Source of the DNA: Candidatus Aegiribacteria sp.
Lineage (GTDB): Bacteria > Fermentibacterota > Fermentibacteria > Fermentibacterales > JCC-6
Direction: 5' to 3'
NCBI GenBank assembly: GCA_023138735.1
Contig: JAGLOY010000105.1
Location: forward strand, 393-64,392
Length of the DNA: 64,000 nt
The position numbers and the translations under genes are program-made. Position 1 is the stretch's first letter; every line of letters starts with the position of its first letter. The notes beneath the pieces were generated by a model that was not told where the DNA came from, made no database searches, and saw nothing but the letters and a program-made list of their open reading frames with translations. Shown piece after piece: positions 4,495-36,885 of this stretch.

Positions 4495-4551
4495 AACCCG
4501 GATCCTAATTCATTTTGCCAAAATTCAAGATACGATCCCAATGAGACCCCA

Positions 4552-11419: not shown

Positions 11420-12474
11420 TGAACAACAGCAGAATAACTGAAATGATATGCCCGATTCCTCTTTCCGATTACCCCGAAATTACTATGGCTCATGGCGGCG
11501 GCGGAAGGCTTATGAACGATCTCATCGGGAGGGTCATCTTGAAGGCCTTCTCCAATCCCATACTGGATTCGAGACACGACGGTGCTGTTATTACTGCAGG
11601 GGAGGGAAGGCTGGCCTTCGCAACGGATTCGCATGTCATTACTCCGCTGTTCTTTCCCGGTGGTGACATCGGTGCTCTTTCCGTATATGGAACCGTAAAT
11701 GATCTTGCCATGTGCGGAGCGGATGCAAGGTGGCTCAGTGCCGGTTTCATCATAGAAGAAGGCTTCTCTATGGAGACCCTCTGGAGGATCGTAGTTTCGA
11801 TGGCCGAAGCATCCAGGAAAACGGGTGTATTGATAGTTACTGGAGATACAAAGGTGGTGGACAGAGGTAAGGGAGACGGCATTTATATTAATACTGCTGG
11901 AATAGGCATCATTCCGGAGGGAATCGATGTATCTCCGTCAAGAATATGTGAAGGTGATGTGGTAGTCCTGAGCGGTGACATCGGCAGACACGGTATAGCT
12001 ATAATGGCTGTTCGTGAAGGTATTAAGCTGGAAGGAGCGATCCGCAGCGATCTGGCCCCCCTCGATTCCATGGCCCGGGATCTCATTCGGGAAGGGCTGG
12101 ATATACACTGCATGAGGGATTTGACGCGGGGAGGTCTTGCCAGCGGATTGAATGAGATAGCTTCTATGACCGATTGCTCCATCAGGATAGAGGAGAATTC
12201 AATCCCTGTTCACGATGAGGTTCTGGGTGCATGTGAGATCCTTGGTTTTGATCCTCTTTACGTAGCTAATGAGGGCAGGTTCGTAGTCATCCTTCCAAGG
12301 GAAAACGGGGATAAGGCTGTGGAGATTCTCAGGCGGCACGAAAACGGTCATCAGGCTGAGATAATCGGTTCTGTGGAGAAATCTTCCTACGCTGACCTGT
12401 TGATGATCAGCAGTATAGGTTCGGAGAGGATTGTTGATATGATGAGCGGCGAACAGCTGCCCCGGATCTGCTGA
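11419..12474 (+). CDS. hypE: Hydrogenase maturation factor HypE
   Basis: PurM-like fold. Terminal PRIC motif ends the protein. Confidence 0.95.
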
Positions 12475-21026: not shown

Positions 21027-21380
21027 ATGGAAAAACTTCACAAAATACTGGAAGGACTTGTAGAAGTCAGCGGTATTGATGTTGCAGTCGTCGTTGGACG
21101 AGACGGATTCGTTATCGATGCTGCATCAACCGGCACATCTGATACAGAAGCCATAGGAGCGATGGTTTCCACCGGTCTGGGTTCAGCTGAAAGTGTCGGT
21201 CGTGAGCTGGGACTTGAGGAAATGGATCAGGCGATGATGGAGTACAAGAACGGTATAGTTATGATGACTGCACTGGGCAGCGACGCTCTTCTCGTTGTTG
21301 TTGCATCCAAGGATGCAAATCTAGGAGGAATCCGTCTTCAGGTAAGAAGAAGCGCTCCCAAACTTGTGGAAGCACTTTAA
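21027..21380 (+). CDS. Roadblock/LC7 (MglB-like) domain protein
   Basis: 117 aa. VSGIDVAVVVGRDGFVIDA ... ALLVVVASKDANLGGIRL pattern is typical of Roadblock/LC7. Confidence 0.8.
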   Translation: MEKLHKILEGLVEVSGIDVAVVVGRDGFVIDAASTGTSDTEAIGAMVSTGLGSAESVGRELGLEEMDQAMMEYKNGIVMMTALGSDALLVVVASKDANLGGIRLQVRRSAPKLVEAL

Positions 21381-21413: not shown

Positions 21414-21917
21414 ATGCAATTACCAAAAAATGAAGATACCAAGACTATCGAGGATCTTCTCTCTGGACTTGTTCGGCGTTCCGAAGCCATTACCGCTCTG
21501 CTGATAAGCAGGGAGGGTATCTGCATAAGTAAAGTCGGTAACGTGGAATCATTGAATTCTACAGCCCTTGCCGCACTTGTAGCGGGAATGTTCGCAGCTA
21601 CAAAGGAAGTGGCGAATATAGTCGGGGAAGAACAGTTTTCAATTCTGCTGCAGCAGGGAGAGAAGCGTCATATTCACATTTCTCTGATAGGCCAGAGAAG
21701 TATGATGATAGTCGTTTTTGAAGATTACAGAAGGATTGGACGTGTACGGCATGAGGCCCGGACAATCAGTCCCGATCTTGTCAGGTTACTCGAGAGCAGA
21801 GAAAAATCCAGGAAAGAGGATGCAGATGATCTTTCTGTTCCTGAGTTCAGGGAATATGCTCTGAATCTCATCGACAGGATATTTGTGGTTGGTGAAGAGG
21901 AAGATGCCTCATCTTGA
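21414..21917 (+). CDS. Roadblock/LC7 domain protein with a charged C-terminal extension
   Basis: ITALLISREGICISKVG ... MMIVVFEDYRRIGRV Roadblock-like core. Confidence 0.65.
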   Translation: MQLPKNEDTKTIEDLLSGLVRRSEAITALLISREGICISKVGNVESLNSTALAALVAGMFAATKEVANIVGEEQFSILLQQGEKRHIHISLIGQRSMMIVVFEDYRRIGRVRHEARTISPDLVRLLESREKSRKEDADDLSVPEFREYALNLIDRIFVVGEEEDASS

Positions 21918-22488
21918 TCCGATAGAGAAGCAGATTGTTTTCAAGATCGTGTACTTTGGTCCTGGTATGAGTGGTAAAACAACGAATCTGCTCTACATTC
22001 ATAAGGCCTTGATTGACAAGTATAAGGGAGAGATGTTGGTTCTAGATACGGAAAAGGAGAGAACCCTGTTTTTTGATTTCTTTCCAGTTTCGCTTGGAAC
22101 CGTTCAAGGTTATTCCCTTAAGTTTCACCTGTATACCATTCCCGGACAGATATTCTACGAAGCGAGTCGAAGGATCATACTCCTCGGTGCCGATGGTGTG
22201 GTGTTTGTTGCTGACTCATCAGCTGACAGACTGGACGATAATACTGAAATGTTCAGGTTGATGAATGAGAATCTCAGAAGTCATGATATCGACCCATCGT
22301 GTTTCCCTGTTGTATTGCAGTACAATAAGCGCGATCGTAATCCCAGGCTTGAGATTGGCTCAATAGAGCAAGAGCTTGGATTGGACAACATTCCCGTTAC
22401 CGAATCGATAGCTATCGAGGGTAAAGGAGTCATGAAAACACTGCAGGTTGTCAGTAAGGAGATTATAAAGCGTTTTCAGATAAGCTGA
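21904..22488 (+). CDS. mglA: MglA-family Ras-like small GTPase
   Basis: KIVYFGPGMSGKTTNL P-loop, MglA-specific PGQ G3 motif (HLYTIPGQIFY), and QYNKRD G4. Collinear similarity to Myxococcus MglA as I recall it. Confidence 0.9.
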   Translation: MPHLDPIEKQIVFKIVYFGPGMSGKTTNLLYIHKALIDKYKGEMLVLDTEKERTLFFDFFPVSLGTVQGYSLKFHLYTIPGQIFYEASRRIILLGADGVVFVADSSADRLDDNTEMFRLMNENLRSHDIDPSCFPVVLQYNKRDRNPRLEIGSIEQELGLDNIPVTESIAIEGKGVMKTLQVVSKEIIKRFQIS

Positions 22489-22512: not shown

Positions 22513-23205
22513 ATGGCCATTAACGGTACACTGAGCGATATAGGTTTCGTTTCACTGCTCCAGTTTCCCAATTCCAGCAGAAAGACAGGTTTGCTTACAG
22601 TGATAACCATGGATGGCAAGGCCGAGTTCTACTACAGAAAAGGTGAACTTGTACATGCCAGGTACGGTAAGATGACTGGTATTGAAGTTCTTGTTGATAT
22701 TGTGGATTGGAATGAAGGCCAGTTCACTTTTGAACCCGATCTGGAACCGGATGAGACGACAATCAAGGATGATCTTCACCATGTTCTCATGTGGGCACTC
22801 AAGGAACGGGATGAGAGAAAGAAGGATCAGAATGAGAATGGCGGCACTCCTGAAGTAGAACTCGATGCCGAGCTTTCAGAAAAACTGGATGAACTTATGA
22901 AAGCTGCCTCAGGTATCGAGTACATCTGCATATTTACCACTCTTGGACAGCTTGTTGCCAGATCGATGTCTGATAGCAGTTTTCTTCAGGAAATTGAACC
23001 ATTCATGGAATCCATAACCTGTTTTATCTCTGAATACCCGGGTGGGGTAACAGGAAAAGTGTTTATCGAGGATATCAATATTTCAATCGCAATCTCGGGT
23101 CTTGATGAACAGCAGACGGTTGTCATTGCGACCGGTCCTTCTCTGAAACTTGGAAGGCTGGCCATGGCTCTGGGCAGAATTATAAGAGAATTAACCGGAG
23201 TATAG
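22513..23205 (+). CDS. DUF4388 (PATAN-like) domain protein with a C-terminal Roadblock-like domain
   Basis: N-terminal GTLSDIGFVSLLQF...GELVHARYG...EGQFTFEP pattern. C-terminal half has the Roadblock-like alternation. Confidence 0.65.
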   Translation: MAINGTLSDIGFVSLLQFPNSSRKTGLLTVITMDGKAEFYYRKGELVHARYGKMTGIEVLVDIVDWNEGQFTFEPDLEPDETTIKDDLHHVLMWALKERDERKKDQNENGGTPEVELDAELSEKLDELMKAASGIEYICIFTTLGQLVARSMSDSSFLQEIEPFMESITCFISEYPGGVTGKVFIEDINISIAISGLDEQQTVVIATGPSLKLGRLAMALGRIIRELTGV

Positions 23206-23217
23206 CGGATGTAAAGA

Positions 23218-24570
23218 ATGAATGATAGAAAGACCCACAACAGCTTGCATTTTGAAGAATTTCTTGAGATATGCTCCGATTCAGGTCTTATTGAGGAAGG
23301 AACAGCAAGAGAGATTATCAACTTTGCCAAGTCTATCGGCGGAGTAGGAGCCGTTCCAAGACTTACCGGTGAACAGCTGAGCAGTACGGGTGATTTTGCC
23401 GCATCCCTCGTCAGTATCTATCCTGACGACATGACTTTCAATAATTATGTAACCACGGAAGAGAATTATTACGCCACTGAAATAACCAGGACCATTGCCC
23501 TTATCCCCAGGGTCTGGAAGAGTATTACTCCCATCATGCTATATGCTCACACAGGTCAGGGTAAGACTCACCTGCTTGCCTCCATTGCCAGAGCAACCCA
23601 CAAGAGCACCCTTATCCTTAACACCGTTGATCTGCACATAGAGTATCAGCACTGTCTTAACGCCGGGATTGATAGAGAACTGCGGGATTGGATCACATCC
23701 TATGATCTCCTTATGCTGGATGATATTCAGTTTTCCCAGGGTGATCTTCAATTTCAGAAATTTCTGATTTCCGTGATCAATCGCATGCCCAGAGGCAAGC
23801 ACGGTATCATCACTTCATCAGATGTTCATCCTGCAAGACTGCTTGATATAGATTCCTCATTCTATTCCAGACTGACCTCAGGACTCGTTATCAAGCTTGA
23901 GACTGTCAATCTGGATGGCAGAAAGGAAATTCTTCGTAATCTTTTTAACGAGACGGGCATAAAACCGGATGAGGATATTCTCGAATTCATTGCTACACAT
24001 GTGATAATGAATGTAAGGCAGTTGAAGGCGGCCGGGCGGATGGTTCTTGCTCAGATGCTTGGTCCCAACCATGATGTAACGATTGATACGGTCAAGGATA
24101 TACTCAGCTTCATGCAGATATACAAGGGTGCTGAAGATCGGCCGAAGGCATCGGAACACAATGTAAAAGAAGAGAAAGAGGTTGAAACCACCTTGGATCC
24201 AACACCATATATTGTGGTTGATATCGATGAGGAAATTAAGATTCAGACAACTCCTTCTAAAACGAAAGCTGATGCAGAACCTGAGGTAACTGTCGATTTG
24301 AACCAGGATGATCACGTTTTCAGGGAGGAAATGGCGCTTCCTCCCATAATCGACAGCCCTCCAGATACTACCAGATACAAAGATATGGTGGAATCGGCTC
24401 AGACGGTTGATCGCCAGGTTGATGCATTGAAACAGGCAGTCGCAGAAAGAATTGAACAGCTTGAGGAGAAGAACGCCGATTCTAAAGAGATAGATAAACT
24501 GAGATCTGCATTAGCATATCTCAGAAAAGGTGAACTCGAATCAGCAATGATCGCTTTGAAACCTGAATAG
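23218..24570 (+). CDS. DnaA-domain-III-like AAA+ ATPase lacking the DnaA DNA-binding domain IV; acidic coiled-coil tail
   Basis: TFNNYV, Walker A HTGQGKTHLL, Walker B LLMLDDIQF, IITSS sensor, SRLTSGLVIKLE, NVRQLKAA. No HTH-like C-terminus. Confidence 0.8.
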   Translation: MNDRKTHNSLHFEEFLEICSDSGLIEEGTAREIINFAKSIGGVGAVPRLTGEQLSSTGDFAASLVSIYPDDMTFNNYVTTEENYYATEITRTIALIPRVWKSITPIMLYAHTGQGKTHLLASIARATHKSTLILNTVDLHIEYQHCLNAGIDRELRDWITSYDLLMLDDIQFSQGDLQFQKFLISVINRMPRGKHGIITSSDVHPARLLDIDSSFYSRLTSGLVIKLETVNLDGRKEILRNLFNETGIKPDEDILEFIATHVIMNVRQLKAAGRMVLAQMLGPNHDVTIDTVKDILSFMQIYKGAEDRPKASEHNVKEEKEVETTLDPTPYIVVDIDEEIKIQTTPSKTKADAEPEVTVDLNQDDHVFREEMALPPIIDSPPDTTRYKDMVESAQTVDRQVDALKQAVAERIEQLEEKNADSKEIDKLRSALAYLRKGELESAMIALKPE

Positions 24571-24605: not shown

Positions 24606-25091
24606 ATGGTTGAACAATTGGGTCGTTTTCATGGTGTAGCGTACCTGCTGGGTGCTCTTGCCCATGCATCCGAGAAGAACCTGGGCCAGAGCAGTCATTC
24701 GATTTGCATGCTGGCGGGTAAGAAATTCGGCAGGGAAGCCGTTGAAGATGTGGAACAGACCGATGATCCTGAGAAAGCTGTACAACTTCTTAAAGCAGCG
24801 CTTGAAAAACGGGGGATAGTCTGGGATTTCGAACCCTTCATGGGCGAGCGTGATGAGCTTATGGAGAAACGTGATGGTTCTGAGGTCATGAGGATCGTAT
24901 TCCGAACCTGCATGGTCAGAAACGCCCTTTTCCGATATGCGCACGAGCAGAAGGAATCCATGTGCTATATGGCTCACGGAGTTTTCTCTGGAGCCATGGA
25001 GAAGGTCATGCCCGGTAAGAAGGTAGAACTTGAGATTCTTCATGCAGGCCCAAATGCCTGTCTGAAGGAAATGATACTGGAGGATGCATGA
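24606..25091 (+). CDS. V4R (4-vinyl reductase-like) small-molecule-binding domain protein
   Basis: C-terminal pattern C-x17-C...G..SGA...E..H.G...C resembles V4R. Stop overlaps the hydrogenase small-subunit start. Confidence 0.55.
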   Translation: MVEQLGRFHGVAYLLGALAHASEKNLGQSSHSICMLAGKKFGREAVEDVEQTDDPEKAVQLLKAALEKRGIVWDFEPFMGERDELMEKRDGSEVMRIVFRTCMVRNALFRYAHEQKESMCYMAHGVFSGAMEKVMPGKKVELEILHAGPNACLKEMILEDA

Positions 25092-26002
25092 TGAAAACCA
25101 GAATTTCAACCGAGTGGCTTTCAGGATGTTCAGGATGTCATGTTGCCGTAGTAGATCTCCATGAAAAACTCCTGAATCTTCTTGATGATGTGGAGTTCGT
25201 CCGTATTCCTGTACTCATGGATGAGAAAGGATATCCTGAAGCCGAAGTAGGAATAGTAGAGGGAGCGATTAGAAGCGAACATGACAGGAAGGCTCTTCTT
25301 AAAATGAGGGAGACCTGCAAAACGCTGATCGCATTCGGCACCTGTGCTGCATATGGCGGGCCATCAGGTATCGGATGGCTCTATGATAAAGACTCCATTC
25401 TGAACAAGATATACAAGGAAACTGTTACAGCGGCAGATGATGGGAAACTTCCAGAGGGAGCACCGGAACTGGAGCAGAGTGTTACCCCTCTGAACGAAGT
25501 CGTAGATATCGATTTCTTTATACCGGGTTGCCCTCCTCATCCGTATTATATCGCCCTTGCCATCAAGACTCTGCTGGGTGCTTCGGTGCCTGCCATATCC
25601 ATGAAGACCGTATGCTCTGTATGCAATCGTCAAATGGAAAAGCGTGAAGGAGTGAAATTTCAGCGGGGGATGAGCACCGCTCCGGAGGAGGATATTTGTC
25701 TCCTGAGTCAGGGAGTCATCTGCCTTGGGTCAGTAACGCTTGACCGTTGTCAAGCTCAGTGTCCGAATAAAGGGATCACTTGTGCCGGATGCGCAGGACC
25801 TTCAATGGATATCATTACCGAACCACATCTGGACATTCGAACCATGATAGCCAGGAGAATGAGTTTGCTCACAGGAATTGATCAGAAAGAGATACAGGAA
25901 TATATTGAAAAGGAAGCTAAAACATTTTACTCCTACGCGATCTCATCACCGATTATCTATAAGAAACCTATGGTTGAGATAAGGGAGTGGGCAGGAAATT
26001 GA
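25088..26002 (+). CDS. [NiFe]-hydrogenase small subunit, MvhG-like (group 3 type)
   Basis: GCSGCH, GTCAAYGG and GCPP proximal-cluster motifs. C-terminal Cys-rich region for two further clusters. No Tat signal. Confidence 0.9.
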   Translation: MMKTRISTEWLSGCSGCHVAVVDLHEKLLNLLDDVEFVRIPVLMDEKGYPEAEVGIVEGAIRSEHDRKALLKMRETCKTLIAFGTCAAYGGPSGIGWLYDKDSILNKIYKETVTAADDGKLPEGAPELEQSVTPLNEVVDIDFFIPGCPPHPYYIALAIKTLLGASVPAISMKTVCSVCNRQMEKREGVKFQRGMSTAPEEDICLLSQGVICLGSVTLDRCQAQCPNKGITCAGCAGPSMDIITEPHLDIRTMIARRMSLLTGIDQKEIQEYIEKEAKTFYSYAISSPIIYKKPMVEIREWAGN

Positions 26003-26040
26003 ACCACCGTAACTCAAGGGGTAGGATTAAGAGGTAAACC

Positions 26041-27447
26041 ATGGCAACGAAAGTAATAGTAGATCCGGTAACGCGAATAGAGGGTCACGCCAGGATAATA
26101 CTGGAAGTAAACGATTCGGGTAATATATCCAGCGGTCATTTGCAGGTTCTTGAAATAAGGGGATTCGAGAAATTGCTTGAGGGAATGGAACTTTTCAAGC
26201 TTCCTCTTATAACCGGCAGGATATGCGGAGTTTGTCCCGCTGCGCACCATCTGGCATCTGTAACCGCCATTGAGAATGGTCTGAAAGTTAAGATTCCAGC
26301 CGATGCAAAATTACTCAGGGAGTTGATGTATCTCGGTCATATTCTCCATTCACATTCTCTCAGTACATTCGTCCTTACAGGCCCCGATGTTCTTGTTGGG
26401 ATTGGAGCTAAGCCTGAGGATCGTAATGTTCTATCCCTGCTGAGCATGGCACCGGAGATAGTTAAGAAAGTACTCAGATTGAGAAGCATCGGTCAGAAGA
26501 TCGTTGAGATAGTAGGAGGAAGGGGCGTTCACCCTGTAACATCCGTTCCCGGAGGACAGGCTTACCGCCCGAGTGCAGATGAAATCACAAAAATAGGTCT
26601 CTGGAGTGTAGAAGCTGCTTCACTTGTTAAGGAACTCTCAGATGTCCTTATGAAAAAGCTCGAGAATATCTCTGATCTCAGAGAAATAGCGGAGCTTCCC
26701 TTCCATTCGGTAGCCCTTTCCGATAACAACAATGTTACATTCATGCAGAATATCTGTAAAGTTCTTACCCCTTCAGGAGAAGAAGAAAGAACCTTTACCG
26801 CGGATGATTATGCGGACAACCTGGTGGAACATCAGATGCAGGGATCTTACATGAGATCTGTAAGGCTCAAATCCGGAGGAGAAGAGAAGAAGTACTTCGT
26901 TGGTCCCCTTGCAAGGCTCAACGTTAACAGCAGTTTCTCAACTCCTGAAGCAAATAGTCTCCTTGCAGGTTTCAAAGCTATAGGCAGCCCCAGGCTGTCA
27001 GCACTTGATTATCTTGAAGCCAGGCTCATAGAAATGGTTTTCTGCACCGAGAGAATCACTGAGATCTGCGGAGGTGAATTGGGGGATGGGCCGATCATTA
27101 CCGAGGCTTCTCCTGCAGGAGGCCGTTTCAGAGGCATAATCGAAGCTCCCAGAGGCATACTGATCCATGATTACGAAGCTGATGATGATGGTAAGATTAC
27201 CAGTGCAAACCTCATAGTCGCGACGCAGAACAACTACGATGCAATAGATCATGCGATTACCTCTCTTGCCAGGCACTTCAAACAATCGGGGGATGAAAAT
27301 ATTCTGATGAACGGCGCTGAATTCGCCCTCAGATGTTTCGACCCATGCCTCGCCTGTGCCACCCATGCGGCAGGCAGCATGCCCATGAAAATTGAACTCA
27401 GAAGAAATGGCAGAACCTTCAGAGTACTCAGAAGGGAGGGCAAATGA
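26041..27447 (+). CDS. [NiFe]-hydrogenase large subunit, MvhA-like (group 3 type)
   Basis: VTRIEGH, RICGVCPAAHH and DPCLACATH active-site motifs. 26-aa C-terminal extension after the His. Confidence 0.95.
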   Translation: MATKVIVDPVTRIEGHARIILEVNDSGNISSGHLQVLEIRGFEKLLEGMELFKLPLITGRICGVCPAAHHLASVTAIENGLKVKIPADAKLLRELMYLGHILHSHSLSTFVLTGPDVLVGIGAKPEDRNVLSLLSMAPEIVKKVLRLRSIGQKIVEIVGGRGVHPVTSVPGGQAYRPSADEITKIGLWSVEAASLVKELSDVLMKKLENISDLREIAELPFHSVALSDNNNVTFMQNICKVLTPSGEEERTFTADDYADNLVEHQMQGSYMRSVRLKSGGEEKKYFVGPLARLNVNSSFSTPEANSLLAGFKAIGSPRLSALDYLEARLIEMVFCTERITEICGGELGDGPIITEASPAGGRFRGIIEAPRGILIHDYEADDDGKITSANLIVATQNNYDAIDHAITSLARHFKQSGDENILMNGAEFALRCFDPCLACATHAAGSMPMKIELRRNGRTFRVLRREGK

Positions 27448-28172
27448 TGATAAAGATAATAATAGATGAAGATGCATGCGTAGGATGCGAACTTTGTGTT
27501 GATGAATGTCCTACGGATGTATTCGAATTCAACGAGGAGAAGAAAATACCGGAGGTTGTCCGGGAAAAGGAGTGTTTCGGTTGCCTCAGCTGCAGTGAAA
27601 TATGCCCTGCTTCCGCGATTACTCACGAGGATATCATACAATCGGAAGACTACTACCATGATGAGGAGAATGTATTACTCGTTTCCAGGCTCGCGGTCGA
27701 TGTACCACTCCCCAATACTCCATCCGATGAAGAACATAGAAAAGCGGCACTTGAGGATCTGGGTATTAGATTGCTTTCGGTGGCTGCGATATTCCGCCAG
27801 ACACTGGGAGGAAGTCTTCCCGCCGTTGGCACTATGGCAGGGAGAACGCTTGCCACACAGCTTCCCCGGTACAGGATTCCTCAATCCTTCGAGGAAGCGC
27901 TTGATATTGCAGTTGCGCAGTTCTCTCCCGCATGGGATCTGAAACCAGACTACGATGGAGGTTCGAAACTTGAAATAAAAGTTAAGAACTGCTTCATCCG
28001 TGAGCTGTGCAAAGAAGAAGGGATAGAGCTTGGAGAAGACCTGTGCATACTTTTTTATAATTATCTGGCAGGATATGCCGGAAAGCTTGGAAATGCCCGT
28101 CTGAAGCTTATCGAATCTTGTCCAGGCAGTAAAGAATGCAAGTACGATATCGAGGTATTCATTAAAAAATGA
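27444..28172 (+). CDS. 2[4Fe-4S] ferredoxin domain fused to a V4R domain
   Basis: CVGCELCVDECP and CFGCLSCSEICP. C-terminal CFIRELC...AGYAG...ESCPGSKECKYDIEV is V4R-like. Overlaps both neighbouring genes. Confidence 0.7.
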   Translation: MMIKIIIDEDACVGCELCVDECPTDVFEFNEEKKIPEVVREKECFGCLSCSEICPASAITHEDIIQSEDYYHDEENVLLVSRLAVDVPLPNTPSDEEHRKAALEDLGIRLLSVAAIFRQTLGGSLPAVGTMAGRTLATQLPRYRIPQSFEEALDIAVAQFSPAWDLKPDYDGGSKLEIKVKNCFIRELCKEEGIELGEDLCILFYNYLAGYAGKLGNARLKLIESCPGSKECKYDIEVFIKK

Positions 28173-28693
28173 TAGCCGATCAACGCTTTGTTCACCTGCT
28201 TGGCATAATAGGTGTAGGCAACACACTTGCAGGAGATGATGGTGCAGGAAATGCCGTTGTAAGCAGGCTTAAGGAGAAATATCCTGACAGTACCGATGTC
28301 TTTCTTCACAACCTGGAGACTGATCCTCTGGAATTATGGGATGTGCTTCCATCTGCGAAGAAGTTCATATTCGTGGATGCCGTTGCCGGGAAACCTGCCG
28401 GCAGGCTTGTCGCGGTTTCGAAAAGAGGAATGAGAAGAGCCTGGGCACCGTCTCTTCACAACATGGATTTGCCCACAGTAATAAGGCAGCTGTACCTCCT
28501 CCGGGGGGAAGATGAACCGGAATGGAATATCTGGGGAGTTACCATCGATATTCCGGATCATTTACAGGAAGGTCTGTCCTCGGCAGTATCCGAAGCCGTG
28601 GAGAGCCTTGTTGAAATACTATCAGAAAGGATTGAATCGGAAGACTACAGTGTAGAGGTACCGATTATCTTTGAACAATTTGAGAATACCTGA
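28169..28693 (+). CDS. [NiFe]-hydrogenase maturation endopeptidase (second copy in the window)
   Basis: GVGNTLAGDDGAGNAVV signature. Confidence 0.8.
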   Translation: MIADQRFVHLLGIIGVGNTLAGDDGAGNAVVSRLKEKYPDSTDVFLHNLETDPLELWDVLPSAKKFIFVDAVAGKPAGRLVAVSKRGMRRAWAPSLHNMDLPTVIRQLYLLRGEDEPEWNIWGVTIDIPDHLQEGLSSAVSEAVESLVEILSERIESEDYSVEVPIIFEQFENT

Positions 28694-28709
28694 TAAGAAA
28701 GGACCCTCT

Positions 28710-29234
28710 ATGGATCGTGAAAATAGTTTTTTTGCTCCTGTGAATTTTCTGGAAGAGAAAGATTTTGTTGACGCCTGTGGTTTACGTAGCACGGAGGAAC
28801 AGGAAGTAGTAATCGATCAGGGGTCTTTCAGCAATGATCTGTTCATAATCAAGAGTGGTCGTTTCGTTGTGAGTGATTCAAAGGGTGAGGAATTCGTTCT
28901 TGCCGCACTTTCCGAAGGTGACGTGTTCGGTGAAATGGCCTTCTTCAGAAGCGGAATAAGATCGGCCACCGTAACCTGTGTTACCCCTGGTGAGATTCTC
29001 TTTATCAGCAGGGATTCTTTTAAAGAATTACACGCGAAGCACCCCGATCTCTCGATAAGGATTGTATGTACACTGGCTGGGATGCTTTCTGACAGGCTAA
29101 AACATGCTGACGCGACCCTCAGCCTTCTATCGGATGACAGCGAGCTGAGACAGCGTTACGAAATACGCAGGCTCATAAGAGAATTGAAGATGTCGGTTCA
29201 TAAGCATCGCAGCAACGAAGCAACGGGTGAATGA
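28710..29234 (+). CDS. Stand-alone cyclic-nucleotide-binding (CAP_ED) domain protein without an HTH
   Basis: GDVFGEMAFF...RSATV phosphate-binding cassette. ATG 28710 is preferred over the TTG at 28671. Confidence 0.8.
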   Translation: MDRENSFFAPVNFLEEKDFVDACGLRSTEEQEVVIDQGSFSNDLFIIKSGRFVVSDSKGEEFVLAALSEGDVFGEMAFFRSGIRSATVTCVTPGEILFISRDSFKELHAKHPDLSIRIVCTLAGMLSDRLKHADATLSLLSDDSELRQRYEIRRLIRELKMSVHKHRSNEATGE

Positions 29235-29267: not shown

Positions 29268-32200
29268 ATGGATAGCAAGACATCCAGCCGTTTTAACAGT
29301 ATTGGCATAGATTCTCTTACAGGTTTGAAAGACAGATCGTTTCTTGAAAGCATAAACGAGAAGTATTTCACCAAGGATAGTCCCTTGTCACTTCTCATGC
29401 TTGATGTTGATCACTTTAAATTGATAAATGATATCTATGGACACCTGACAGGAGACAAGGTTCTCAGACAGACTGCCCTTACGATACAGGTTAATCTCAA
29501 GGAATCTGATATCGCAGTAAGATTCGGCGGAGATGAATTCATCGTAATCCTTCCAGATACCTCGGAAGAGGGAGCGCTTGACCTGACCCAGAGGCTGATC
29601 TACGAGATAAAGCGGGTTGCGTTCACACCGGGGCTCCACGTAAGCCTTTCTATTGGAGTAAGTCAGAGCAGAAATTCCGATGTATCTATCATGGACCTTG
29701 TCTCACGTGCAGACAGGGCTCTGTACAAGGCCAAGGAGGCCGGCAGAGGAAGATTTTTCTTCTTCACTGAGGACCTTGCAGATTCTAAAGCTCCCGATAT
29801 CAATTTTTCTCATCTTGTAGGACGGAGATCTGAGCTACATAAACTTAGACAGCTCCTTGAAGAATCCGTGACAGATTCCGCCAGATTTGCAATCATTTCA
29901 GGGGAAGCTGGTGTAGGTAAGACTAGGCTCGTGAAAGAATTGCTGAATTACTGTGATTTCATTAAATCAGTTGTCTTGAGAAATTCGGTCATGGAGTATG
30001 CGCAGACGCAACCATTTGCCCTTCTGATAGAACCCGTCAGAGAAGTACTGTCCAGCCTCACTGACAGCGAACTTAGTTTGGTACGTACCGTTGTAGAGCC
30101 TGTTCATCCTGCCACGCTCGATCTATTTCCTGACCTGAAGGCGTCCGTTATGGATGAAACTATCTACTTTCGTGAAGAGAGACTCAGATTCAGGATATTC
30201 AGGGACATTTCAGTTCTTCTTGCTGCTGTTTCCGCGATTCATCCAATAACCTTAATACTGGATAACCTTCAATGGATTACTGAGCCTGATCTTGCCATAT
30301 TATCATTCGTTGCAAGGAATACACCTGAAGCGAACATCCTTTACCTGTGTATACTGAGGGTGAGTGAATTGTCGGATGAGACTTTCAAGAAACTCTCTGC
30401 TATCAGTACATCACTGCCTCTTCTCAGACTTGAGATCGACAAGATGACCGTTGAAGAAACGCGGAATATGATACTGTTTGCCCTTAAGGACCCGAATATA
30501 CCTTCCGAGGTTCAGGATTTCCTGATTTCCCAGTCTGGTGGGAATCCGCTGTTTTTAAGGGAACTCCTTACATCATGTGTGGATTCCGGATATATAACGT
30601 GTGATAAATCCGGAGAAAGCATCTATAACCTGCCGAACGATATTGAAGTGCCTGAGACAATTGGACAGATAATTACGCTGAAGCTTGCCGCCATAAGCAC
30701 TGAAGCCGGTGAACTGCTAAAAATAGTTTCCCTTTCACCGGATCAGTTCACACTTTCGCTGCTCGAAGGTATGACTGGTCACGATAAGGTTGAACTTGCT
30801 CGAAAACTGGATGAATGTACAAAAGCCGGACTGATTGAAGAGTTCAGCGATGGCAGAAGGGGCGTCTGTTTCAGGTTTACACACGGTGCTGCGCGGGATT
30901 ACCTGTCCGCTTACCTTCCAGATTCGCTGAAGCTAACCTACCATCAGAGGATGGCAGCATATTTTGAAGAGCTATTCGTAAAGGACAGGAAGGAACTTCT
31001 AACAGCTGTTGCATACCACTACTCCCGCAGCCAGGATGATGATAATGCCGCGCGATACGCCCTGCTTGCAGCGACTCAGGCCTTCAACAGGGGAGCCAAC
31101 AGAGATGCAATACACTGGTATACAATCTTCCTGGAGAGAATCCACCCGGATTCGGAGTCTGCCAGGAAATTCTCTGTCCATATCAATCTGGGTTCACTTT
31201 ATTCCATTACCGGTGAAGTGGAAATGGCGGACAATTACCTTGAACTGGCACTGGAACTGGCATCAAGTCCCAGAGAATTCGCTGCAGCTCATTTAAGGCT
31301 TGGAAGGAACAACCTGAACAGGAGTCTCTATCCGGAAACCCTTGAGAGTTACAGCAAGGCAGTTAAGATGTGCATGGAGGATGATTCAGGAGATCCGGTC
31401 GTTTTCAGGCTGCTTCTCGAGACACTGATAGAGACATCCTTTGTACATAGGCTTCAAGGGAACTACGATGAAGCCTTTGCTTGCCTTGACCGGGCCTCCA
31501 AAGCCATGAAAGAAAGTAATACCGGGATATATGATGATATTCAGGCCCAGTATTACACAAGAAGAGCTGATGTCATATCGGAGCTGGATTCCCAGAATGA
31601 TGCTCTTGAACTTTACGAAAGAGCCCTGGAGATATACAGAAGGATCGATGATATGCCCGGACAGGGTACGGTACTGAATAATATGCATTCCATCTATGCC
31701 CACAATGGTGATTACGCCACCAGCCTCAGCACGATGGAGGAATCCATCCGTATTAATCTGAAACTGGATGATAAGCTTGGCCTCGCCATAGGGTACTACA
31801 ATGTTGCTGAATATTACCAGGAGATAAACATGCTGGACCAGGCCAGGGAGTACTATGATAAGTACATGGAACTGAACGATATCATCAAGAATGAACTCGG
31901 CTTCGGATACGGAAGGTTCGGTCTTGGGAATCTTCATTGGCTCGAAGGAGAACTTGAAAAATCAAGGTTTTATTTTGAGGGTGCTCTGGAGGTATTCGAG
32001 AAGTTGCGATTCGACCAGATGAAAACAACCTGTGATCTTATGATAGCCCAGATACATGTTCAGATGGGTGAGTTTGATAAGGCGAAAGAGATACTGGACT
32101 TCATCGATGATGATACAATGAATCCAACAGTTGATCTCAATACACTTTACATGAAAGGTCTTGTACAGCTTCACCATCCGGATTCGGACAGGGAATCCCT

Positions 32201-32504
32201 TGAACGCGCAGAGGAAATATTAAGAAAAGTTATTAACTCCTCAACGGATCATTCGGAAGTAGATATTGCAATGTACTATTCGGCTCTGAATACAGCTCTG
32301 CAAAACCTCGGCAGAGATGAAGACATGATCGCAGCCCTTATAGAAGGGTCTATCAAACTCGCGGAACAACTACAACGCATTCAATCCTATTCCATAAGGA
32401 ACAGCATAATGACCAGACGCGAGATCGCAGAATTCATAGACCTCTGCCTCAGTAACAACCTGCCTTTTCCCCCCGATGGATTTGTTTTCAGAACAGACCG
32501 ATGA
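29268..32504 (+). CDS. GGDEF diguanylate cyclase fused to a STAND (AAA_16) NTPase and TPR repeats
   Basis: RFGGDEFIV active-site motif, Walker A GEAGVGKTRL, and C-terminal TPR-like repeats. 1078 aa. Confidence 0.85.
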   Translation: MDSKTSSRFNSIGIDSLTGLKDRSFLESINEKYFTKDSPLSLLMLDVDHFKLINDIYGHLTGDKVLRQTALTIQVNLKESDIAVRFGGDEFIVILPDTSEEGALDLTQRLIYEIKRVAFTPGLHVSLSIGVSQSRNSDVSIMDLVSRADRALYKAKEAGRGRFFFFTEDLADSKAPDINFSHLVGRRSELHKLRQLLEESVTDSARFAIISGEAGVGKTRLVKELLNYCDFIKSVVLRNSVMEYAQTQPFALLIEPVREVLSSLTDSELSLVRTVVEPVHPATLDLFPDLKASVMDETIYFREERLRFRIFRDISVLLAAVSAIHPITLILDNLQWITEPDLAILSFVARNTPEANILYLCILRVSELSDETFKKLSAISTSLPLLRLEIDKMTVEETRNMILFALKDPNIPSEVQDFLISQSGGNPLFLRELLTSCVDSGYITCDKSGESIYNLPNDIEVPETIGQIITLKLAAISTEAGELLKIVSLSPDQFTLSLLEGMTGHDKVELARKLDECTKAGLIEEFSDGRRGVCFRFTHGAARDYLSAYLPDSLKLTYHQRMAAYFEELFVKDRKELLTAVAYHYSRSQDDDNAARYALLAATQAFNRGANRDAIHWYTIFLERIHPDSESARKFSVHINLGSLYSITGEVEMADNYLELALELASSPREFAAAHLRLGRNNLNRSLYPETLESYSKAVKMCMEDDSGDPVVFRLLLETLIETSFVHRLQGNYDEAFACLDRASKAMKESNTGIYDDIQAQYYTRRADVISELDSQNDALELYERALEIYRRIDDMPGQGTVLNNMHSIYAHNGDYATSLSTMEESIRINLKLDDKLGLAIGYYNVAEYYQEINMLDQAREYYDKYMELNDIIKNELGFGYGRFGLGNLHWLEGELEKSRFYFEGALEVFEKLRFDQMKTTCDLMIAQIHVQMGEFDKAKEILDFIDDDTMNPTVDLNTLYMKGLVQLHHPDSDRESLERAEEILRKVINSSTDHSEVDIAMYYSALNTALQNLGRDEDMIAALIEGSIKLAEQLQRIQSYSIRNSIMTRREIAEFIDLCLSNNLPFPPDGFVFRTDR

Positions 32505-32639: not shown

Positions 32640-34016
32640 ATGAAAATCGTTTTTATGAAAACTGCAGTTCTGATATTGCTGATCGCAATGTTTCTGCTGT
32701 CATGCTCGGATAACGACAGTGAGGTAGACGGGATACCTGAAGAACTAGCTCAGGATGTATCTGAACACATAAATATAATACTGATAATAATCGATACACT
32801 CCGTGCAGATCATCTCTCATGCTATGGTTACCATCGATTAACCTCACCAACCATAGACAGTCTAGCTGCAGCTGGTACGATCTGGGTTAATGCTCAAGCT
32901 CAAGCTCCATGGACTCTTCCAGCGCATGCCAGCATATGGACCGGTCTGACCGTAAGGTCCCACAGAACTGAAACCAACCGCAATTGGATACGAAGTGATA
33001 GTTCAGGAAAGAATTACGCACTTGATGAAAACCTCCTTTCAATTCCCGTACTTCTCAGTGAAGCCGGTTTCAGCACCTGCGGGATCGCGAATGTGTGCCT
33101 GCTCGGCGATATTTACGGATTTGATAATGGTTTTAATAACTATTCATGTAATAGTGCCGGGCATGGTATGGCTGCAGTATCTGTGGATTCTCTGATAGTC
33201 TGGCTGGAGGAGAATAGTATGGAGCGTTTTTTCTGCATGCTGCACCTTTATGATGTACACGATCCATACGATCCACCCAGCCCGTATAACGCATTATTTG
33301 ACACTGAGAACTCTGGAGAAGCGACCGTATGGGAGGTAGAGGATGGACTACTTCTGAATCCAGAAGACAGAGATCATCTTGTAGGTCAATACGATGGCGA
33401 AATAGCCTGGGTTGATGATAATCTGCGCACACTTTTTGCCTGGCTCCGTTCCAGAAATCTGAACGAAAACACTCTGATCATCGTAACTTCCGATCACGGT
33501 GAGGAATTCCTCGATCATGGCTGGGTGGATCACGGACATACATTATATCAGGAACTTGTTCATATTCCCCTTATAATAGCCGGACCGGGAATAAGCGAGG
33601 GTTTCGTAGATTCTTCCTTTGTAGGGCAATTCGATATACTCCCGACCATGATCTCCTGGGCAGGTGTTGATTGTAACGGGCAGTTCGAGGGAGTTAACAT
33701 CCTTACTGATGACTTAACTGGTGACAGGGTAATACCTGCAAGTGGTGTTGTACCGGTTCCATGGAGTACAGGTGGACATCTGGCATCAGTCGCTTCCAAT
33801 TCCCGAAAAACAATTGGTATGAGTGATCTGGAAACATTTATTACATTCGATCTTAATATGGATCCCGGAGAAGAGCATTCTCTTCCAGCGGATTCATTGG
33901 GAGTGGAGGAGGTTCTGTACTACTGGGCAACTCCGCAGCGCGGATATCCTGTATTTGCAATGCCCGGCCAGGTGGAAGTGAATGCTCTGAGAAACCTGGG
34001 TTATATAAACGATTAG
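32640..34016 (+). CDS. Sulfatase-family (alkaline-phosphatase superfamily) lipoprotein
   Basis: Lipobox FLLSC. IIIDTLRADHL, WTLPAHAS (Thr in place of the C/S-x-P-x-R motif), TSDHGEEFLDHG. Confidence 0.8.
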   Translation: MKIVFMKTAVLILLIAMFLLSCSDNDSEVDGIPEELAQDVSEHINIILIIIDTLRADHLSCYGYHRLTSPTIDSLAAAGTIWVNAQAQAPWTLPAHASIWTGLTVRSHRTETNRNWIRSDSSGKNYALDENLLSIPVLLSEAGFSTCGIANVCLLGDIYGFDNGFNNYSCNSAGHGMAAVSVDSLIVWLEENSMERFFCMLHLYDVHDPYDPPSPYNALFDTENSGEATVWEVEDGLLLNPEDRDHLVGQYDGEIAWVDDNLRTLFAWLRSRNLNENTLIIVTSDHGEEFLDHGWVDHGHTLYQELVHIPLIIAGPGISEGFVDSSFVGQFDILPTMISWAGVDCNGQFEGVNILTDDLTGDRVIPASGVVPVPWSTGGHLASVASNSRKTIGMSDLETFITFDLNMDPGEEHSLPADSLGVEEVLYYWATPQRGYPVFAMPGQVEVNALRNLGYIND

Positions 34017-34074: not shown

Positions 34075-35451
34075 ATGATAGGAGATTTCCAGAGAATACT
34101 TCTTGTTTTCCCGGAAACGCGGTATCCATCAGGACAGCCTCCCCTGGGACTTGGAATGCTGGTAGCGATCTCAAGGAATCTGAACCGCCAGATCGAGGTG
34201 TTCGACATGTCCTTCCGGAGTCACCCTTTTGAGGATCTGAGGACGGAACTGATCAGATTCCAGCCGGATACGGTGGGGATTTCCATCATGACCCCTCAGC
34301 TTGCGGATGCATGCAGAACTGCCTCCATTTCGCGTGAATTATTGCCGGAGGCACTTATTATTGCAGGGGGGCCTCACGCGACTGTTTTACCTGATGATAC
34401 GATCAGGAGAACCGGAGCGAATCTGGTTTATTCAGGTGAAGCTGAAAGAGCCTGGGCAGCTCTATTAGATGGTGTGGAACCCTCTGCTATCCCGGGAATG
34501 ACAATGATTAAAGAAGGGAAAATTCTCAGCGTTCCCGGTTTGATGCTCACTGAGGACCTGGACACACTTCCACTTCCCGACAGATCAGTATTCGATATGG
34601 AGAAATACTTCGCCTCATGGTACTCCATGGACAGAGTTGATCCCCGCCTCAGGGGAACATCCATAATGGCTACCAGAGGGTGCCCGTTCAAGTGTACCTT
34701 CTGCCAGCCAACGCTTAGTGAGATATTCGGAAAGAGAACCCGTAAACGTTCCCCTGAATCTATAGTCGAAGAACTTGAATCGATTGTAAAGGACTATGGT
34801 ATTAACGCTTTCATGTTCGAGGATTCCACTTTCATAATCGATGCGGAGTGGGTTAGAAGCATATGCGAGCTGATGATAGATAAAAACCTGAGACTCCGAT
34901 GGTGCTGTAATGTCAGAGCTGACCTCCTGACCGAGGATCTTCTCGATATCATGATAAAAGCCGGGTTGTCCAAGATAAATATGGGCGTGGAGTCTGCTTC
35001 CCAGAGGGTTCTTGATGAGATCTATGAAAAAGGAATTACCGTTGCTGGAGTAAGAAGAGCCCTCCGTATGGCAAAGGAGAGAGGTGTTAGAGTTCAGGGT
35101 TACTTCATGCTGGGAGCTCCAGGGGAAACGCATGAGGAGATGAAGAAGACTATCAGTTTTGCCTCGCGGGAACCCTTTGATGATGCCCTGTTCGATATTA
35201 CGACTCCATTTCCCCATACCGAACTCTGGGAAAGAACAAAAGAATTCATAACTAAGGATTACGAGGATTTTGATTGTTTTCACAAATCGGTGTACGAACT
35301 TGAGGGTTTCAATCCGGATAAAATAGAAAGAATGAAGAAGAGGGCTTTTTTCAGGTTCTACCTGCATCCGAGAAGAATACTGCAAACCCTGAAGACTATT
35401 ATGGGTTCCAGTAACCTGAAAAGAACCCTGATAAAGATCAGAAGGATATAG
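34075..35451 (+). CDS. B12-binding-domain radical SAM enzyme (class B)
   Basis: N-terminal Rossmann-like B12 domain and a RGCPFKCTFC CxxxCxxC motif. Confidence 0.85.
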   Translation: MIGDFQRILLVFPETRYPSGQPPLGLGMLVAISRNLNRQIEVFDMSFRSHPFEDLRTELIRFQPDTVGISIMTPQLADACRTASISRELLPEALIIAGGPHATVLPDDTIRRTGANLVYSGEAERAWAALLDGVEPSAIPGMTMIKEGKILSVPGLMLTEDLDTLPLPDRSVFDMEKYFASWYSMDRVDPRLRGTSIMATRGCPFKCTFCQPTLSEIFGKRTRKRSPESIVEELESIVKDYGINAFMFEDSTFIIDAEWVRSICELMIDKNLRLRWCCNVRADLLTEDLLDIMIKAGLSKINMGVESASQRVLDEIYEKGITVAGVRRALRMAKERGVRVQGYFMLGAPGETHEEMKKTISFASREPFDDALFDITTPFPHTELWERTKEFITKDYEDFDCFHKSVYELEGFNPDKIERMKKRAFFRFYLHPRRILQTLKTIMGSSNLKRTLIKIRRI

Positions 35452-35484
35452 TTATTATTTCATTCGAATGACTGGAGAACAGGA

Positions 35485-36885
35485 TTGAGCAGAATACTAC
35501 TTGTCAACCCACCATCGGCAGTGGGTCTTTACAATAAGAGCAAAATAAGAGTAGCAATAACAAGTGCGCCCTTCATCACACTCGCTACACTTGCAGGAGA
35601 GCTTCTAAGGGAGGGCCACGAGGTCAGGATCGCGGATCTGATGGTTGAGGAGGATCCCTTCAATACCTATCAGGGGATCCTTGAGGTATTTCAGCCGGAG
35701 TATATCGGGATAACCTTTACCACTCCTCTTTTTCATGAAGCCTCCTTGCTGGCTGGTATGGCTCATGAGCTCCTGACAGAATCCACAACCATAGCCGGGG
35801 GAATACATGCCTCGACACTTCCGAAGGAATCACTTGAACAGGGTAACTTCGATCTTGTTGTACTTGGCGAAGGTGAGAGAACCCTTGCGGAGATATGCGC
35901 AGGTACTGATCCGCAGTGTATCAGAGGTATTGCCTTTGGAAGAGGTGATAATTTCACGGTAACACCTCCCCGGGAACTCATCGCTGACCTGGACGACCTT
36001 CCATTGCCGGCCTGGGAGCTTCACGATCTTTCGCGATACCACTCACCGCACATTGCCAGCAGGGACAATCCAGTCGGGTACATGGAAACAAATAGAGGTT
36101 GTAATCATCACTGCACTTTCTGCAGCCAGAGAATATTCGGACATAACATCAGATCAAAATCCTCCAGGAGAGTCGTTGATGAAATGTTCAGAATGCTGGA
36201 GCTGGGCTTTAACGATATTCACATTAAAGACGATAATTTCACCGCCGATATTGAACGCGCCAAGGATACCTGCAGATTGCTTATAGAGGAAGAATTCCCC
36301 GCTCCATGGGCTCTTCCTACTGGAGTTAATGTAACGGATGTCGACAGAGAGTTCTTCCAGCTGGCAAGGGAGGCAGGCTGTTATCAGATTTCTTTCGGTA
36401 TAGAGAGCGGTGCGCCCGAAATACTCAGCGGTGTCAACAAGAAGCAATCCCTGGAGAAGATCCGGGAAGCTGTTGAAATGGCTAACGATGCTGGTCTTGA
36501 AACGGTAGGCTTTTTCATGATGGGGCTGCCCGGGGACACTGAAGAGACCATGAAGCAGAGTATCCGTTTTGCGCAAAGCCTTCCCCTTACATACGCAAAG
36601 GCATCCATGACTCTGCCGTTCCCTTCTTCTGCACTTTACAGGCAGATTAAGATGGAGGGAAGAATCCTTTCGGAAGACTGGTGCATGTACAACTTCCACT
36701 CCACAAAGGAGGTATGGATGCACGAGAACCTGGACTGGAAAACCATCCAGCACTACTACTCGCTCTTCCACCGAAAATTCTACTTCAGACCTTCATATGT
36801 CTGGAAAAGGTTTTGGCGGGACATCCGAATGGGGCAGCTCATGGATGATATTAAAGCCGTTCTGACAAACGACTGGTCAGGCTGA
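35485..36885 (+). CDS. B12-binding-domain radical SAM enzyme (class B); paralog of the previous gene
   Basis: TTG start. RGCNHHCTFC motif. Same architecture as 34075-35451. Confidence 0.85.
   Translation: MSRILLVNPPSAVGLYNKSKIRVAITSAPFITLATLAGELLREGHEVRIADLMVEEDPFNTYQGILEVFQPEYIGITFTTPLFHEASLLAGMAHELLTESTTIAGGIHASTLPKESLEQGNFDLVVLGEGERTLAEICAGTDPQCIRGIAFGRGDNFTVTPPRELIADLDDLPLPAWELHDLSRYHSPHIASRDNPVGYMETNRGCNHHCTFCSQRIFGHNIRSKSSRRVVDEMFRMLELGFNDIHIKDDNFTADIERAKDTCRLLIEEEFPAPWALPTGVNVTDVDREFFQLAREAGCYQISFGIESGAPEILSGVNKKQSLEKIREAVEMANDAGLETVGFFMMGLPGDTEETMKQSIRFAQSLPLTYAKASMTLPFPSSALYRQIKMEGRILSEDWCMYNFHSTKEVWMHENLDWKTIQHYYSLFHRKFYFRPSYVWKRFWRDIRMGQLMDDIKAVLTNDWSG

Follow-up and report, generated by a model that had tools for sequence, protein, structure and literature searches.

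A conserved group-3 [NiFe]-hydrogenase cassette encoded with V4R/Bet3-fold and Roadblock proteins, a candidate hydrogen-sensing input to a bacterial small-GTPase switch

Introduction

The partial pressure of hydrogen determines whether fermentation and syntrophy can proceed thermodynamically, and, to our knowledge, the only well-characterised hydrogen sensor is the aerobic HupUV/HoxBC enzyme, with the group 2c [NiFe]-hydrogenases and the group C [FeFe]-hydrogenases as putative further cases. In eukaryotes, Bet3-fold subunits act together with longin/Roadblock-like subunits in regulating a small GTPase. Among the [NiFe]-hydrogenases, HydDB lists the regulatory group 2b (HupUV/HoxBC), which is linked to histidine kinases, and the putative group 2c, which is linked to diguanylate cyclases (PMC5037454); for prokaryotic small GTPases, a neighbourhood association of MglA, MglB, and PATAN genes is already known (Wuichet and Sogaard-Andersen, PMC4316618). 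Here, a [NiFe]-hydrogenase gene cassette is described from a 64-kb stretch of contig JAGLOY010000105.1 of Candidatus Aegiribacteria (Fermentibacterota), hereafter the window, to which all coordinates refer unless another locus is named.

The cassette, comprising genes for a Roadblock protein, a V4R-like protein, the hydrogenase small and large subunits, a ferredoxin::V4R-like fusion, and a protease, is conserved and previously undescribed, and across phyla it is genomically coupled to Roadblock/LC7, MglA, MglB, and PATAN genes and not to a metabolic electron acceptor. A literature search found no paper linking a hydrogenase to Roadblock, MglA, PATAN, or V4R-fold proteins, nor any describing a sensory group-3 hydrogenase of this kind. 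On the basis of genomic association, the cassette is tentatively interpreted as a hydrogen/redox-sensing input to a small-GTPase switch, an interpretation that is quite possible but falls somewhat short of probable.

Gene organization of the cassette

Twelve forward-strand genes between positions 21027 and 32504 form a single run with intergenic gaps of at most 38 bp, in the order Robl1, Robl2, MglA, PATAN, AAA+, V4Ra, small subunit, large subunit, FdV4R, protease, cNMP-binding protein, and GGDEF-AAA-TPR protein. The hydrogenase portion begins with V4Ra (24606-25091; 161 aa; open reading frame 1, ORF1), a stand-alone V4R/Bet3-fold protein recognised by a Foldseek search with its AlphaFold2 (AF2) model and by invariant Cys and His residues. 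It is followed by an MvhG/VhuG-like small subunit (25088-26002; 304 aa; Pfam Oxidored_q6, 93 bits; NCBIfam VhuG, 228 bits), an MvhA/VhuA-like large subunit (26041-27447; 468 aa; Pfam NiFeSe_Hases; NCBIfam VhuA, 295 bits), FdV4R (27444-28172; 242 aa; ORF4), and a dedicated hydrogenase maturation endopeptidase (28169-28693; 174 aa; HycI, 41 bits; TIGR00072, 88 bits). In FdV4R, residues 1-65 form a 2x[4Fe-4S] ferredoxin domain (Fer4 families) and residues from about 95 to 240 a V4R/ATC-hydrolase-like domain (ATC_hydrolase; Foldseek).

A preliminary description of this DNA had reported these last five forward-strand ORFs as a translationally coupled unit. All five are present where it had placed them, and coupling is borne out at three junctions, each a 4-bp ATGA overlap, but not between the small- and large-subunit genes, which lie 38 bp apart with a Shine-Dalgarno sequence in the gap; the V4Ra gene, too, is preceded at 7 nt by a strong Shine-Dalgarno sequence, AGGAGG. 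The five-gene unit was, however, drawn too narrowly, in that the cassette is embedded in a run of signalling genes that includes Roadblock, MglA, and PATAN genes.

Of these, Robl1 (21027-21380; 117 aa; Pfam Robl_LC7, 66.5 bits), the sixth conserved gene of the cassette, encodes a Roadblock/LC7 protein whose closest solved structures are the stand-alone Roadblock proteins CvnB5 and MglB. The second Roadblock/LC7 protein, Robl2 (21414-21917; 167 aa; Robl_LC7, 39.8 bits), is of MglB-like size, and the small GTPase (21883-22488; Pfam Arf) scores 191 bits with MglA of Thermus (3t12_A) and 179 bits with that of Myxococcus, which marks it as a clear MglA orthologue, so that the window encodes MglA together with two Robl_LC7 proteins, as in an MglA/MglB module. 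A PATAN (DUF4388/PatA_N) domain protein (22513-23205; DUF4388, 70 bits) and a DnaA/Hda-like AAA+ ATPase (23218-24570) complete the upstream genes; the latter matched only the ATPase domain of Pfam Bac_DnaA and scored 145 bits with TIGR00362 against a cutoff of 344, and no DNA-binding domain of the DnaA type was detected in it by Pfam scan. Downstream of the protease lie a cNMP-binding protein (28671-29234; Pfam cNMP_binding, 72 bits), an add-on specific to Aegiribacteria (8/53 loci), and a protein combining a GGDEF diguanylate cyclase domain (131 bits) with an AAA_16 ATPase and TPR repeats (29268-32504; 9/53 loci).

No forward-strand terminator-like site was found between the genes of the run; since the promoter and terminator scan yielded no more sites than shuffled controls, the operon boundaries are drawn from spacing alone. 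No gene for Hdr, MvhD, FrhB, HoxFU/NuoF, or a cytochrome was found by Pfam scans of the ORFs of at least 150 aa across the whole window, and at this scope the preliminary observation that none of MvhD, Hdr, FrhB, HoxFU, or a cytochrome is encoded next to the hydrogenase extends to all 64 kb.

Distribution and genomic neighbourhood

The synteny survey, which scanned one genome per species, recovered the cassette at 71 loci, all from metagenome-assembled genomes (MAGs), in at least six phyla: Fermentibacterota, Acidobacteriota (Thermoanaerobaculia, Holophaga, and Bryobacterales), Desulfuromonadales/Geobacter, Fibrobacterota, Eisenbacteria, and Methylomirabilota. Because the same gene order recurs throughout these loci, the arrangement is far beyond chance. 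The small subunit, the large subunit, and the ferredoxin fusion accompanied the V4R-like gene at all 53 loci with enough sequence, as did the protease at 52, and relatives of V4Ra and FdV4R in other phyla were 55-65% identical to those of the window. Two loci from MFD Acidobacteriota MAGs (L075 and L076) had multiple fragmentary matches per hydrogenase gene, which look like frameshifts due to assembly error or to pseudogenisation.

A Robl1 homologue was encoded within 8 kb of the V4R-like gene at 51 of 55 loci, followed in frequency by PATAN (41/55), an MglA-type GTPase (23/55), a second Roadblock protein of the Robl2 type (22/55), and a DnaA-like AAA+ ATPase (19/55). Robl1 lay directly upstream on the same strand, at 43-264 bp, in 20 of 24 Acidobacteriota loci and five of seven Desulfuromonadales loci, and in three unrelated lineages a gene for a Roadblock/LC7 protein of 117-118 aa directly precedes the V4R-like gene with a PATAN or response-regulator gene nearby. 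All-against-all clustering of the flanking ORFs, although messy owing to stop-to-stop ORF calling and with one conserved cluster that was an antisense artefact, returned no other family conserved across phyla beyond the core genes, Roadblock, PATAN, MglA, and AAA+. At two Fermentibacteraceae loci (L018 and L021), two Robl1 copies, joined at L021 by two Robl2 copies, flank the PATAN and AAA+ genes, a pattern indicating local partial duplication of the module.

Reciprocal tests started from Robl1 homologues. At L077, the full Roadblock-MglA-PATAN-AAA+ module stands beside a divergently transcribed sister hydrogenase (58-2990, reverse strand), whose large subunit, small subunit, and V4R-like protein are 40%, 47%, and 35% identical to those of the window, and whose cassette has a separate, plain ferredoxin of 82 aa in place of the FdV4R fusion. 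Linkage of the module to V4R-bearing hydrogenases therefore recurs in two hydrogenase lineages. The DnaA/Hda-like AAA+ gene is a recurring member of the module, found in Fermentibacterota and in two further lineages, as at L077 (6728-7924) and L078 (6079-7248), whether or not a hydrogenase is present. In a Methanoregulaceae MAG (L079, 8001-9751), from a methanogen, a Roadblock/LC7 gene is directly followed by one for a genuine Pfam V4R protein of 375 aa, with no hydrogenase nearby; pairing of Roadblock with V4R thus extends to archaea and may be a broader theme among prokaryotes.

Motifs, maturation, and classification of the hydrogenase

The large subunit of the window carries the motifs RICGVCPAAHH and DPCLACATH and a C-terminal extension of 26 aa. 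Across the family, the first motif (R[IL]CGVCP[AG]A[HQ]) was present in 60 of 60 large subunits examined and the second (DPCL[AS]CATH) in 58 of the 60, and all 58 of these had an extension of 23-32 aa, so that the extension previously described for the window holds family-wide. The small subunit has 12 Cys with a conservation of 0.99-1.0 across 71 sequences, enough for three iron-sulfur (Fe-S) clusters, and the eight Cys of the ferredoxin domain of FdV4R are conserved across the family. By these motifs, the enzyme is a canonically matured one with a predicted row of five [4Fe-4S]-type sites.

VhuA and VhuG were the best NCBIfam matches to the two subunits, yet both scored far under their equivalog cutoffs (295 vs 800 bits and 228 vs 450 bits, respectively). 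Among solved structures in the PDB, the large subunit scored highest with MvhA (294 bits) and HydL of the bifurcating NiFe-HydABCSL enzyme of Acetomicrobium mobile (293 bits), followed by HoxH (238 bits), with much lower scores for FrhA and the sulfhydrogenase alpha subunit than for MvhA and HydL; identity to MvhA was 37%. An exhaustive search of 1.8 billion cluster representatives with the large subunit revealed a sharp drop between the representative of its own family (645 bits, 62% identity) and the next match (397 bits, 45% identity). In a neighbour-joining (NJ) tree of cluster representatives and five structural anchors, approximate and with anchor sequences hand-transcribed from printed alignments, the family was monophyletic in 100 of 100 bootstraps and joined a few relatives at 40-45% identity, including the L077 enzyme, in a wider group with 85% support that left the MvhA, VhuA, HydL, and HoxH anchors outside; the deeper nodes lack resolution.

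With respect to group 3c, the Ni-Fe ligand motifs and the three-cluster small subunit are therefore present, but the enzyme did not fall within the MvhA/VhuA clade of the NJ tree, and no MvhD and HdrABC or equivalent bifurcating partner was found in the 64-kb window or in the flanks of any related locus. Assignment to group 2b (HupUV/HoxBC) fails on the retained extension, on the protease at 52 of 53 loci, and on the best structural relatives, which belong to group 3. Group 2c of HydDB, suggested by the GGDEF gene downstream, was rejected, as every comparison placed the enzyme in group 3 and the GGDEF gene, seen at 9 of 53 loci, is confined to Aegiribacteria. As judged from its sequence, the enzyme is thus a cytoplasmic group-3 [NiFe]-hydrogenase of a distinct lineage, one that automated tools of the HydDB type would probably label 3c. 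Its original characterisation as an Mvh-like [NiFe]-hydrogenase of group 3, with the usual features of maturation and without a conventional partner close by, is supported.

V4R-like domains in sequence and fold

The two proteins flanking the hydrogenase subunits had been named V4R proteins in the preliminary description, which had proposed a hidden Markov model (HMM) search as the test of this name, and by that test the name failed for both. Pfam V4R (PF02830) matched ORF1 below significance (E = 0.16; 12.5 bits against a gathering threshold of 31) and gave no match at all to the C-terminal half of ORF4. Family-wide, the best match among 35 relatives of ORF1 had E = 0.032, with 13 of the 35 matching at E <= 1 and none significantly, and none of 35 relatives of the fusion protein matched. 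Pfam and NCBIfam otherwise gave nothing significant for ORF1, and a PDB sequence search with ORF1 or its family profile returned only a spurious match to an EF-hand protein. For the C-terminal domain of FdV4R, Pfam ATC_hydrolase (PF14196) came closest, at 25.8-26.7 bits, just under the threshold of 28.1, and it matched 33 of 35 members of the fusion family at E <= 1, the best at 1.5e-6.

At the level of fold, the name fared better. The AF2 model of ORF1 had a predicted local distance difference test (pLDDT) score of 81, and that of FdV4R a score of 66 with a well-modelled C-terminal domain. Foldseek searches of the PDB with both models retrieved PoxR, MopR, DmpR, Bet3/TRAPPC3, and H-NOX (E about 1e-4 to 1e-3, probability 1.0), as well as BcsD and YslB. 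In profile-profile comparison, V4Ra and the C-terminal domain of FdV4R emerged as weak, distant paralogues with mutually aligned Cys clusters, the invariant residues being C102, H113, C120, H124, and C152 in V4Ra and C183, C189, C201, and C232 in FdV4R (97-100% conserved). As modelled, the V4R-like domains on either side of the hydrogenase subunits fall within the H-NOX/V4R/Bet3 fold superfamily, and the V4R identity, upheld by Foldseek and the Cys signature but not by Pfam sequence models, holds at the level of fold only.

V4R is reportedly regarded by Podar et al. (in 2008) as the ancestor of Bet3. HNOB, V4R, and ATC hydrolase are related domains, of which V4R and ATC hydrolase share a cluster of three conserved Cys (Galperin et al., PMC5847659), and in Asgard TRAPPC3 a Zn site of four Cys, with varying ligand positions, tethers the sheet to a helix (PMC10933270). 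Because three or four Cys serve as a structural Zn site at the corresponding place in this fold (PMC10933270, PMC5847659), the simplest account of the invariant Cys4 and Cys3/His sites would be that typical Zn site; an extra Fe-S cluster in the C-terminal domain of FdV4R was set aside as the default on the same grounds. The earlier casting of the V4R domains as redox partners of the hydrogenase is consequently not sustained, as the Cys sites fit structural Zn and, apart from the small subunit, no redox module other than the ferredoxin domain is evident.

A further protein of 214 aa, a stand-alone XylR_N+V4R protein that does pass the Pfam V4R threshold, adjoins the cassette in many Fermentibacterota loci of the Sabulitectum type. 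It occurs at L026 (4374-5018, reverse strand), in up to three tandem copies at L036 (5196-5840, 6094-6777, and 7381-8031, reverse strand), and at L018, L021, L030, L031, L033, L034, L038, and L059; no copy was found in the window.

A candidate hydrogen sensor and its alternatives

Under the sensing interpretation, hydrogen oxidation would send electrons through the three clusters of the small subunit to the two clusters of the ferredoxin domain, whose redox state would alter the conformation or ligand occupancy of the V4R-like pair. V4Ra and the C-terminal domain of FdV4R probably dimerise via their N-terminal helices, like PoxR and TRAPPC3, and the Roadblock protein would read the change in this pair and set the nucleotide state of the MglA-type GTPase. 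The output in Aegiribacteria would probably be cyclic di-GMP (c-di-GMP), via the downstream cNMP-binding and GGDEF-AAA-TPR proteins, and in other lineages PATAN or response-regulator proteins may serve as outputs. A sensing device is the most economical account because the electron path ends at a ligand-binding-type domain without a recognisable acceptor and the conserved neighbours are exclusively regulators of small GTPases. The idea that hydrogen-derived electrons are coupled to a conformational signal, already raised from the genes of the cassette, receives strong and independent support from the conserved Roadblock/MglA/PATAN neighbourhood, and the presence in the window of the tail of an Mrp/Mbh-type hydrogenase locus with its own protease fits a division of labour between metabolic and regulatory enzymes.

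Several observations pull in the other direction. The whole case is one of guilt by association. The large subunit keeps its extension and dedicated protease, unlike the classic HupUV/HoxBC sensors, and a GTPase gene is nearby at only 23 of 55 loci. At L078, the signalling module was found without a hydrogenase and can thus stand alone. Conversely, at four Sabulitectum-type loci the cassette lacks the Roadblock gene and sits between hypFDE and hypAB, as would be expected for a working enzyme; these Roadblock-less cassettes are preceded by one to three copies of the true XylR_N+V4R protein. The AF2 model of FdV4R is mediocre (pLDDT 66), the Foldseek TM-scores of both V4R-like models are only about 0.4-0.5, and a soluble ferredoxin or other acceptor may be encoded elsewhere in the genome.

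The strongest alternative is a catalytic cytoplasmic hydrogenase, in which the ferredoxin domain would pass electrons either to soluble ferredoxin or to a small substrate or cofactor, hydrophobic or sulfur-containing, lodged in the V4R-like pocket (candidates being a quinone, polysulfide/S8, or a thiazoline-type compound), with Roadblock and MglA merely regulating or localising the enzyme. The full set of conserved catalytic and maturation features would suit such a role, as would the placement of the Sabulitectum cassette within a hyp cluster from which signalling genes are absent. Phenols, palmitate, and heme are among the hydrophobic ligands accommodated inside V4R, H-NOX, and Bet3 folds (PMC10933270), the fusion domain is closest in sequence to ATC_hydrolase, a family of C-S bond-cleaving enzymes (PMC5847659), and the invariant V4Ra loop NALFRYAHEQK is modelled at low confidence, as expected of a site for a ligand or partner. 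However, none of the phyla shows a conserved substrate-pathway or acceptor gene close to the cassette, Roadblock, the single neighbour that is conserved, is not known to take part in catalysis, and V4Ra is without a recognisable redox-cofactor motif; a catalytic function is credible but doubtful.

An ordinary group 3c Mvh enzyme, whose MvhD/HdrABC or comparable bifurcating partner would be encoded at another place in the genome and whose flanking proteins would be incidental, is very unlikely. The best HMMs are indeed VhuA and VhuG and the best solved structure MvhA, and a Thermoanaerobaculum enzyme that may belong to this family is listed as 3c (PMC5900883). Against these stand the absence of an adjacent MvhD or Hdr gene at all 53 loci, the clade of its own with 100% support within a group (85%) that excludes MvhA, VhuA, HydL, and HoxH, at 37% identity to MvhA, and the enzyme's own ferredoxin module, which keeps a fixed, translationally coupled position while the accessory proteins remain 55-65% identical across phyla. 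Least probable of all is that the V4R-like proteins serve as chaperones in assembly or maturation, or as Zn/Ni handling factors, and not as subunits of the mature enzyme, for which the invariant Cys/His metal-ligand clusters and the hyp genes (close by in Sabulitectum; hypFDE about 12 kb away in the window) could be cited, but one V4R-like domain is fused to ferredoxin in a gene that overlaps the large-subunit gene by 4 bp, which speaks for a stoichiometric subunit, the fold is not known from any Hyp-type chaperone, and the Cys cluster agrees with the structural Zn site that the fold has (PMC10933270).

The interpretation of the cassette as a hydrogen sensor can be carried one step further, to a complex of the hydrogenase and V4R-like proteins that together with Roadblock would form a hydrogen-gated platform acting like a guanine nucleotide exchange factor or a GTPase-activating protein on the MglA-type GTPase, as a bacterial analogue of Bet3/longin (TRAPP) or Ragulator. 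This more specific proposal is rather unlikely; what has been observed of a TRAPP-like regulator is the co-encoding of Bet3-fold, Roadblock, and GTPase proteins. If true, such a platform would control cell polarity, motility (hydrogenotaxis), or c-di-GMP in fermenters and syntrophs.

Other genes in the window

Near its start (223-5028), the window includes the 3′ end of a locus for a second hydrogenase, which is membrane-bound and of the Mrp/Mbh type (group-4-like); this part encodes MnhB, a Proton_antipo_M subunit, MnhE, MnhG, and a 2x[4Fe-4S] protein, together with a HycI-type protease (4489-5028). With this tail and the cassette in one window, the [NiFe]-hydrogenases of the genome number at least two, and both have a protease of their own. 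An ORF of 533 aa without a Pfam match (5030-6631) separates the Mbh-type protease from hypF (7751-10018), which is followed by hypD (10325-11419) and hypE (11419-12474), about 12 kb upstream of the cassette. Further signalling genes in the window encode a PAS-GGDEF diguanylate cyclase and a histidine kinase (60583-61488 and 12500-13708, both on the reverse strand).

Downstream of the run, a sulfatase gene (32640-34016) is followed by two tandem paralogous B12-binding radical SAM proteins of 458 and 466 aa (34075-36885), and a second sulfatase gene is located at 44780-46114. Three very large reverse-strand genes occupy 50646-59393; an FG-GAP repeat protein and an LTD/CHU_C protein of 1207 aa, both with sorting domains for type IX secretion, are encoded by two of them, and the third is an ORF of 988 aa with no Pfam match.

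Significance and comparison with known systems

The cassette provides a concrete candidate for hydrogen perception in uncultured anaerobes, including Fermentibacterota, Thermoanaerobaculia and other Acidobacteriota, Geobacter relatives, and Fibrobacterota. If the more specific proposal of a hydrogen-gated platform is correct, it would represent a third class of hydrogen sensor, new in mechanism, and the first known case of a redox enzyme connected directly to a small GTPase in prokaryotes. For metabolic reconstruction, the hydrogenases binned by sequence as "group 3c" include a lineage with no Hdr-type partner nearby, and MAG-based models that assume bifurcation with heterodisulfide reductase may be wrong for it. 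The co-encoding in bacteria of V4R/Bet3-fold, Roadblock, and small-GTPase proteins is also relevant to the prokaryotic origins of GTPase regulation of the TRAPP/Ragulator type.

Among described hydrogenases, group 3c Mvh/Vhu (MvhAGD-HdrABC, PDB 5ODC) is the best match to both subunits and is likewise cytoplasmic, with a three-cluster small subunit and a C-terminal extension removed by a dedicated protease; the family described here differs in having no adjacent MvhD or Hdr, in forming a separate clade (~37% identity), and in being encoded with a ferredoxin::V4R-like fusion, a V4R-like protein, and Roadblock. Groups 2b and 2c resemble it in that the hydrogenase is encoded with signal-transduction genes and not with a metabolic acceptor, and the diguanylate cyclase downstream in Aegiribacteria is of the kind proposed for 2c. 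Unlike those groups, however, the present enzyme belongs to group 3, keeps its extension and protease, and is associated with Roadblock/MglA in place of a histidine kinase, the diguanylate cyclase being confined to 9 of 53 loci.

On the signalling side, the MglA orthologue (191 bits), the MglB/CvnB-like Roadblock proteins, and the PATAN protein of the window recall MglA-MglB-PATAN modules and the conservons (CvnA-D) of Streptomyces. The input to a conservon is, in contrast, a histidine-kinase-like membrane protein, and we know of no hydrogenase, V4R-like protein, or DnaA-like AAA+ ATPase reported as part of either system. The V4R-like proteins share with the V4R/TRAPPC3(Bet3)/H-NOX superfamily, including the PoxR, MopR, and DmpR sensors and TRAPPC3 of Thorarchaeota, a two-layer alpha/beta fold, an N-terminal helical pair, and a Cys cluster, whereas both fail the Pfam V4R model, and the fusion of one of the two domains to ferredoxin, with its tether to a hydrogenase, is without known precedent in the fold. 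The three kinds of protein that act together in the eukaryotic Bet3 systems (Bet3-fold, Roadblock-like, and small GTPase) are co-encoded here. Relative to all of these systems, the novelty lies in the subunits and the signalling context that accompany a [NiFe]-hydrogenase of group 3.

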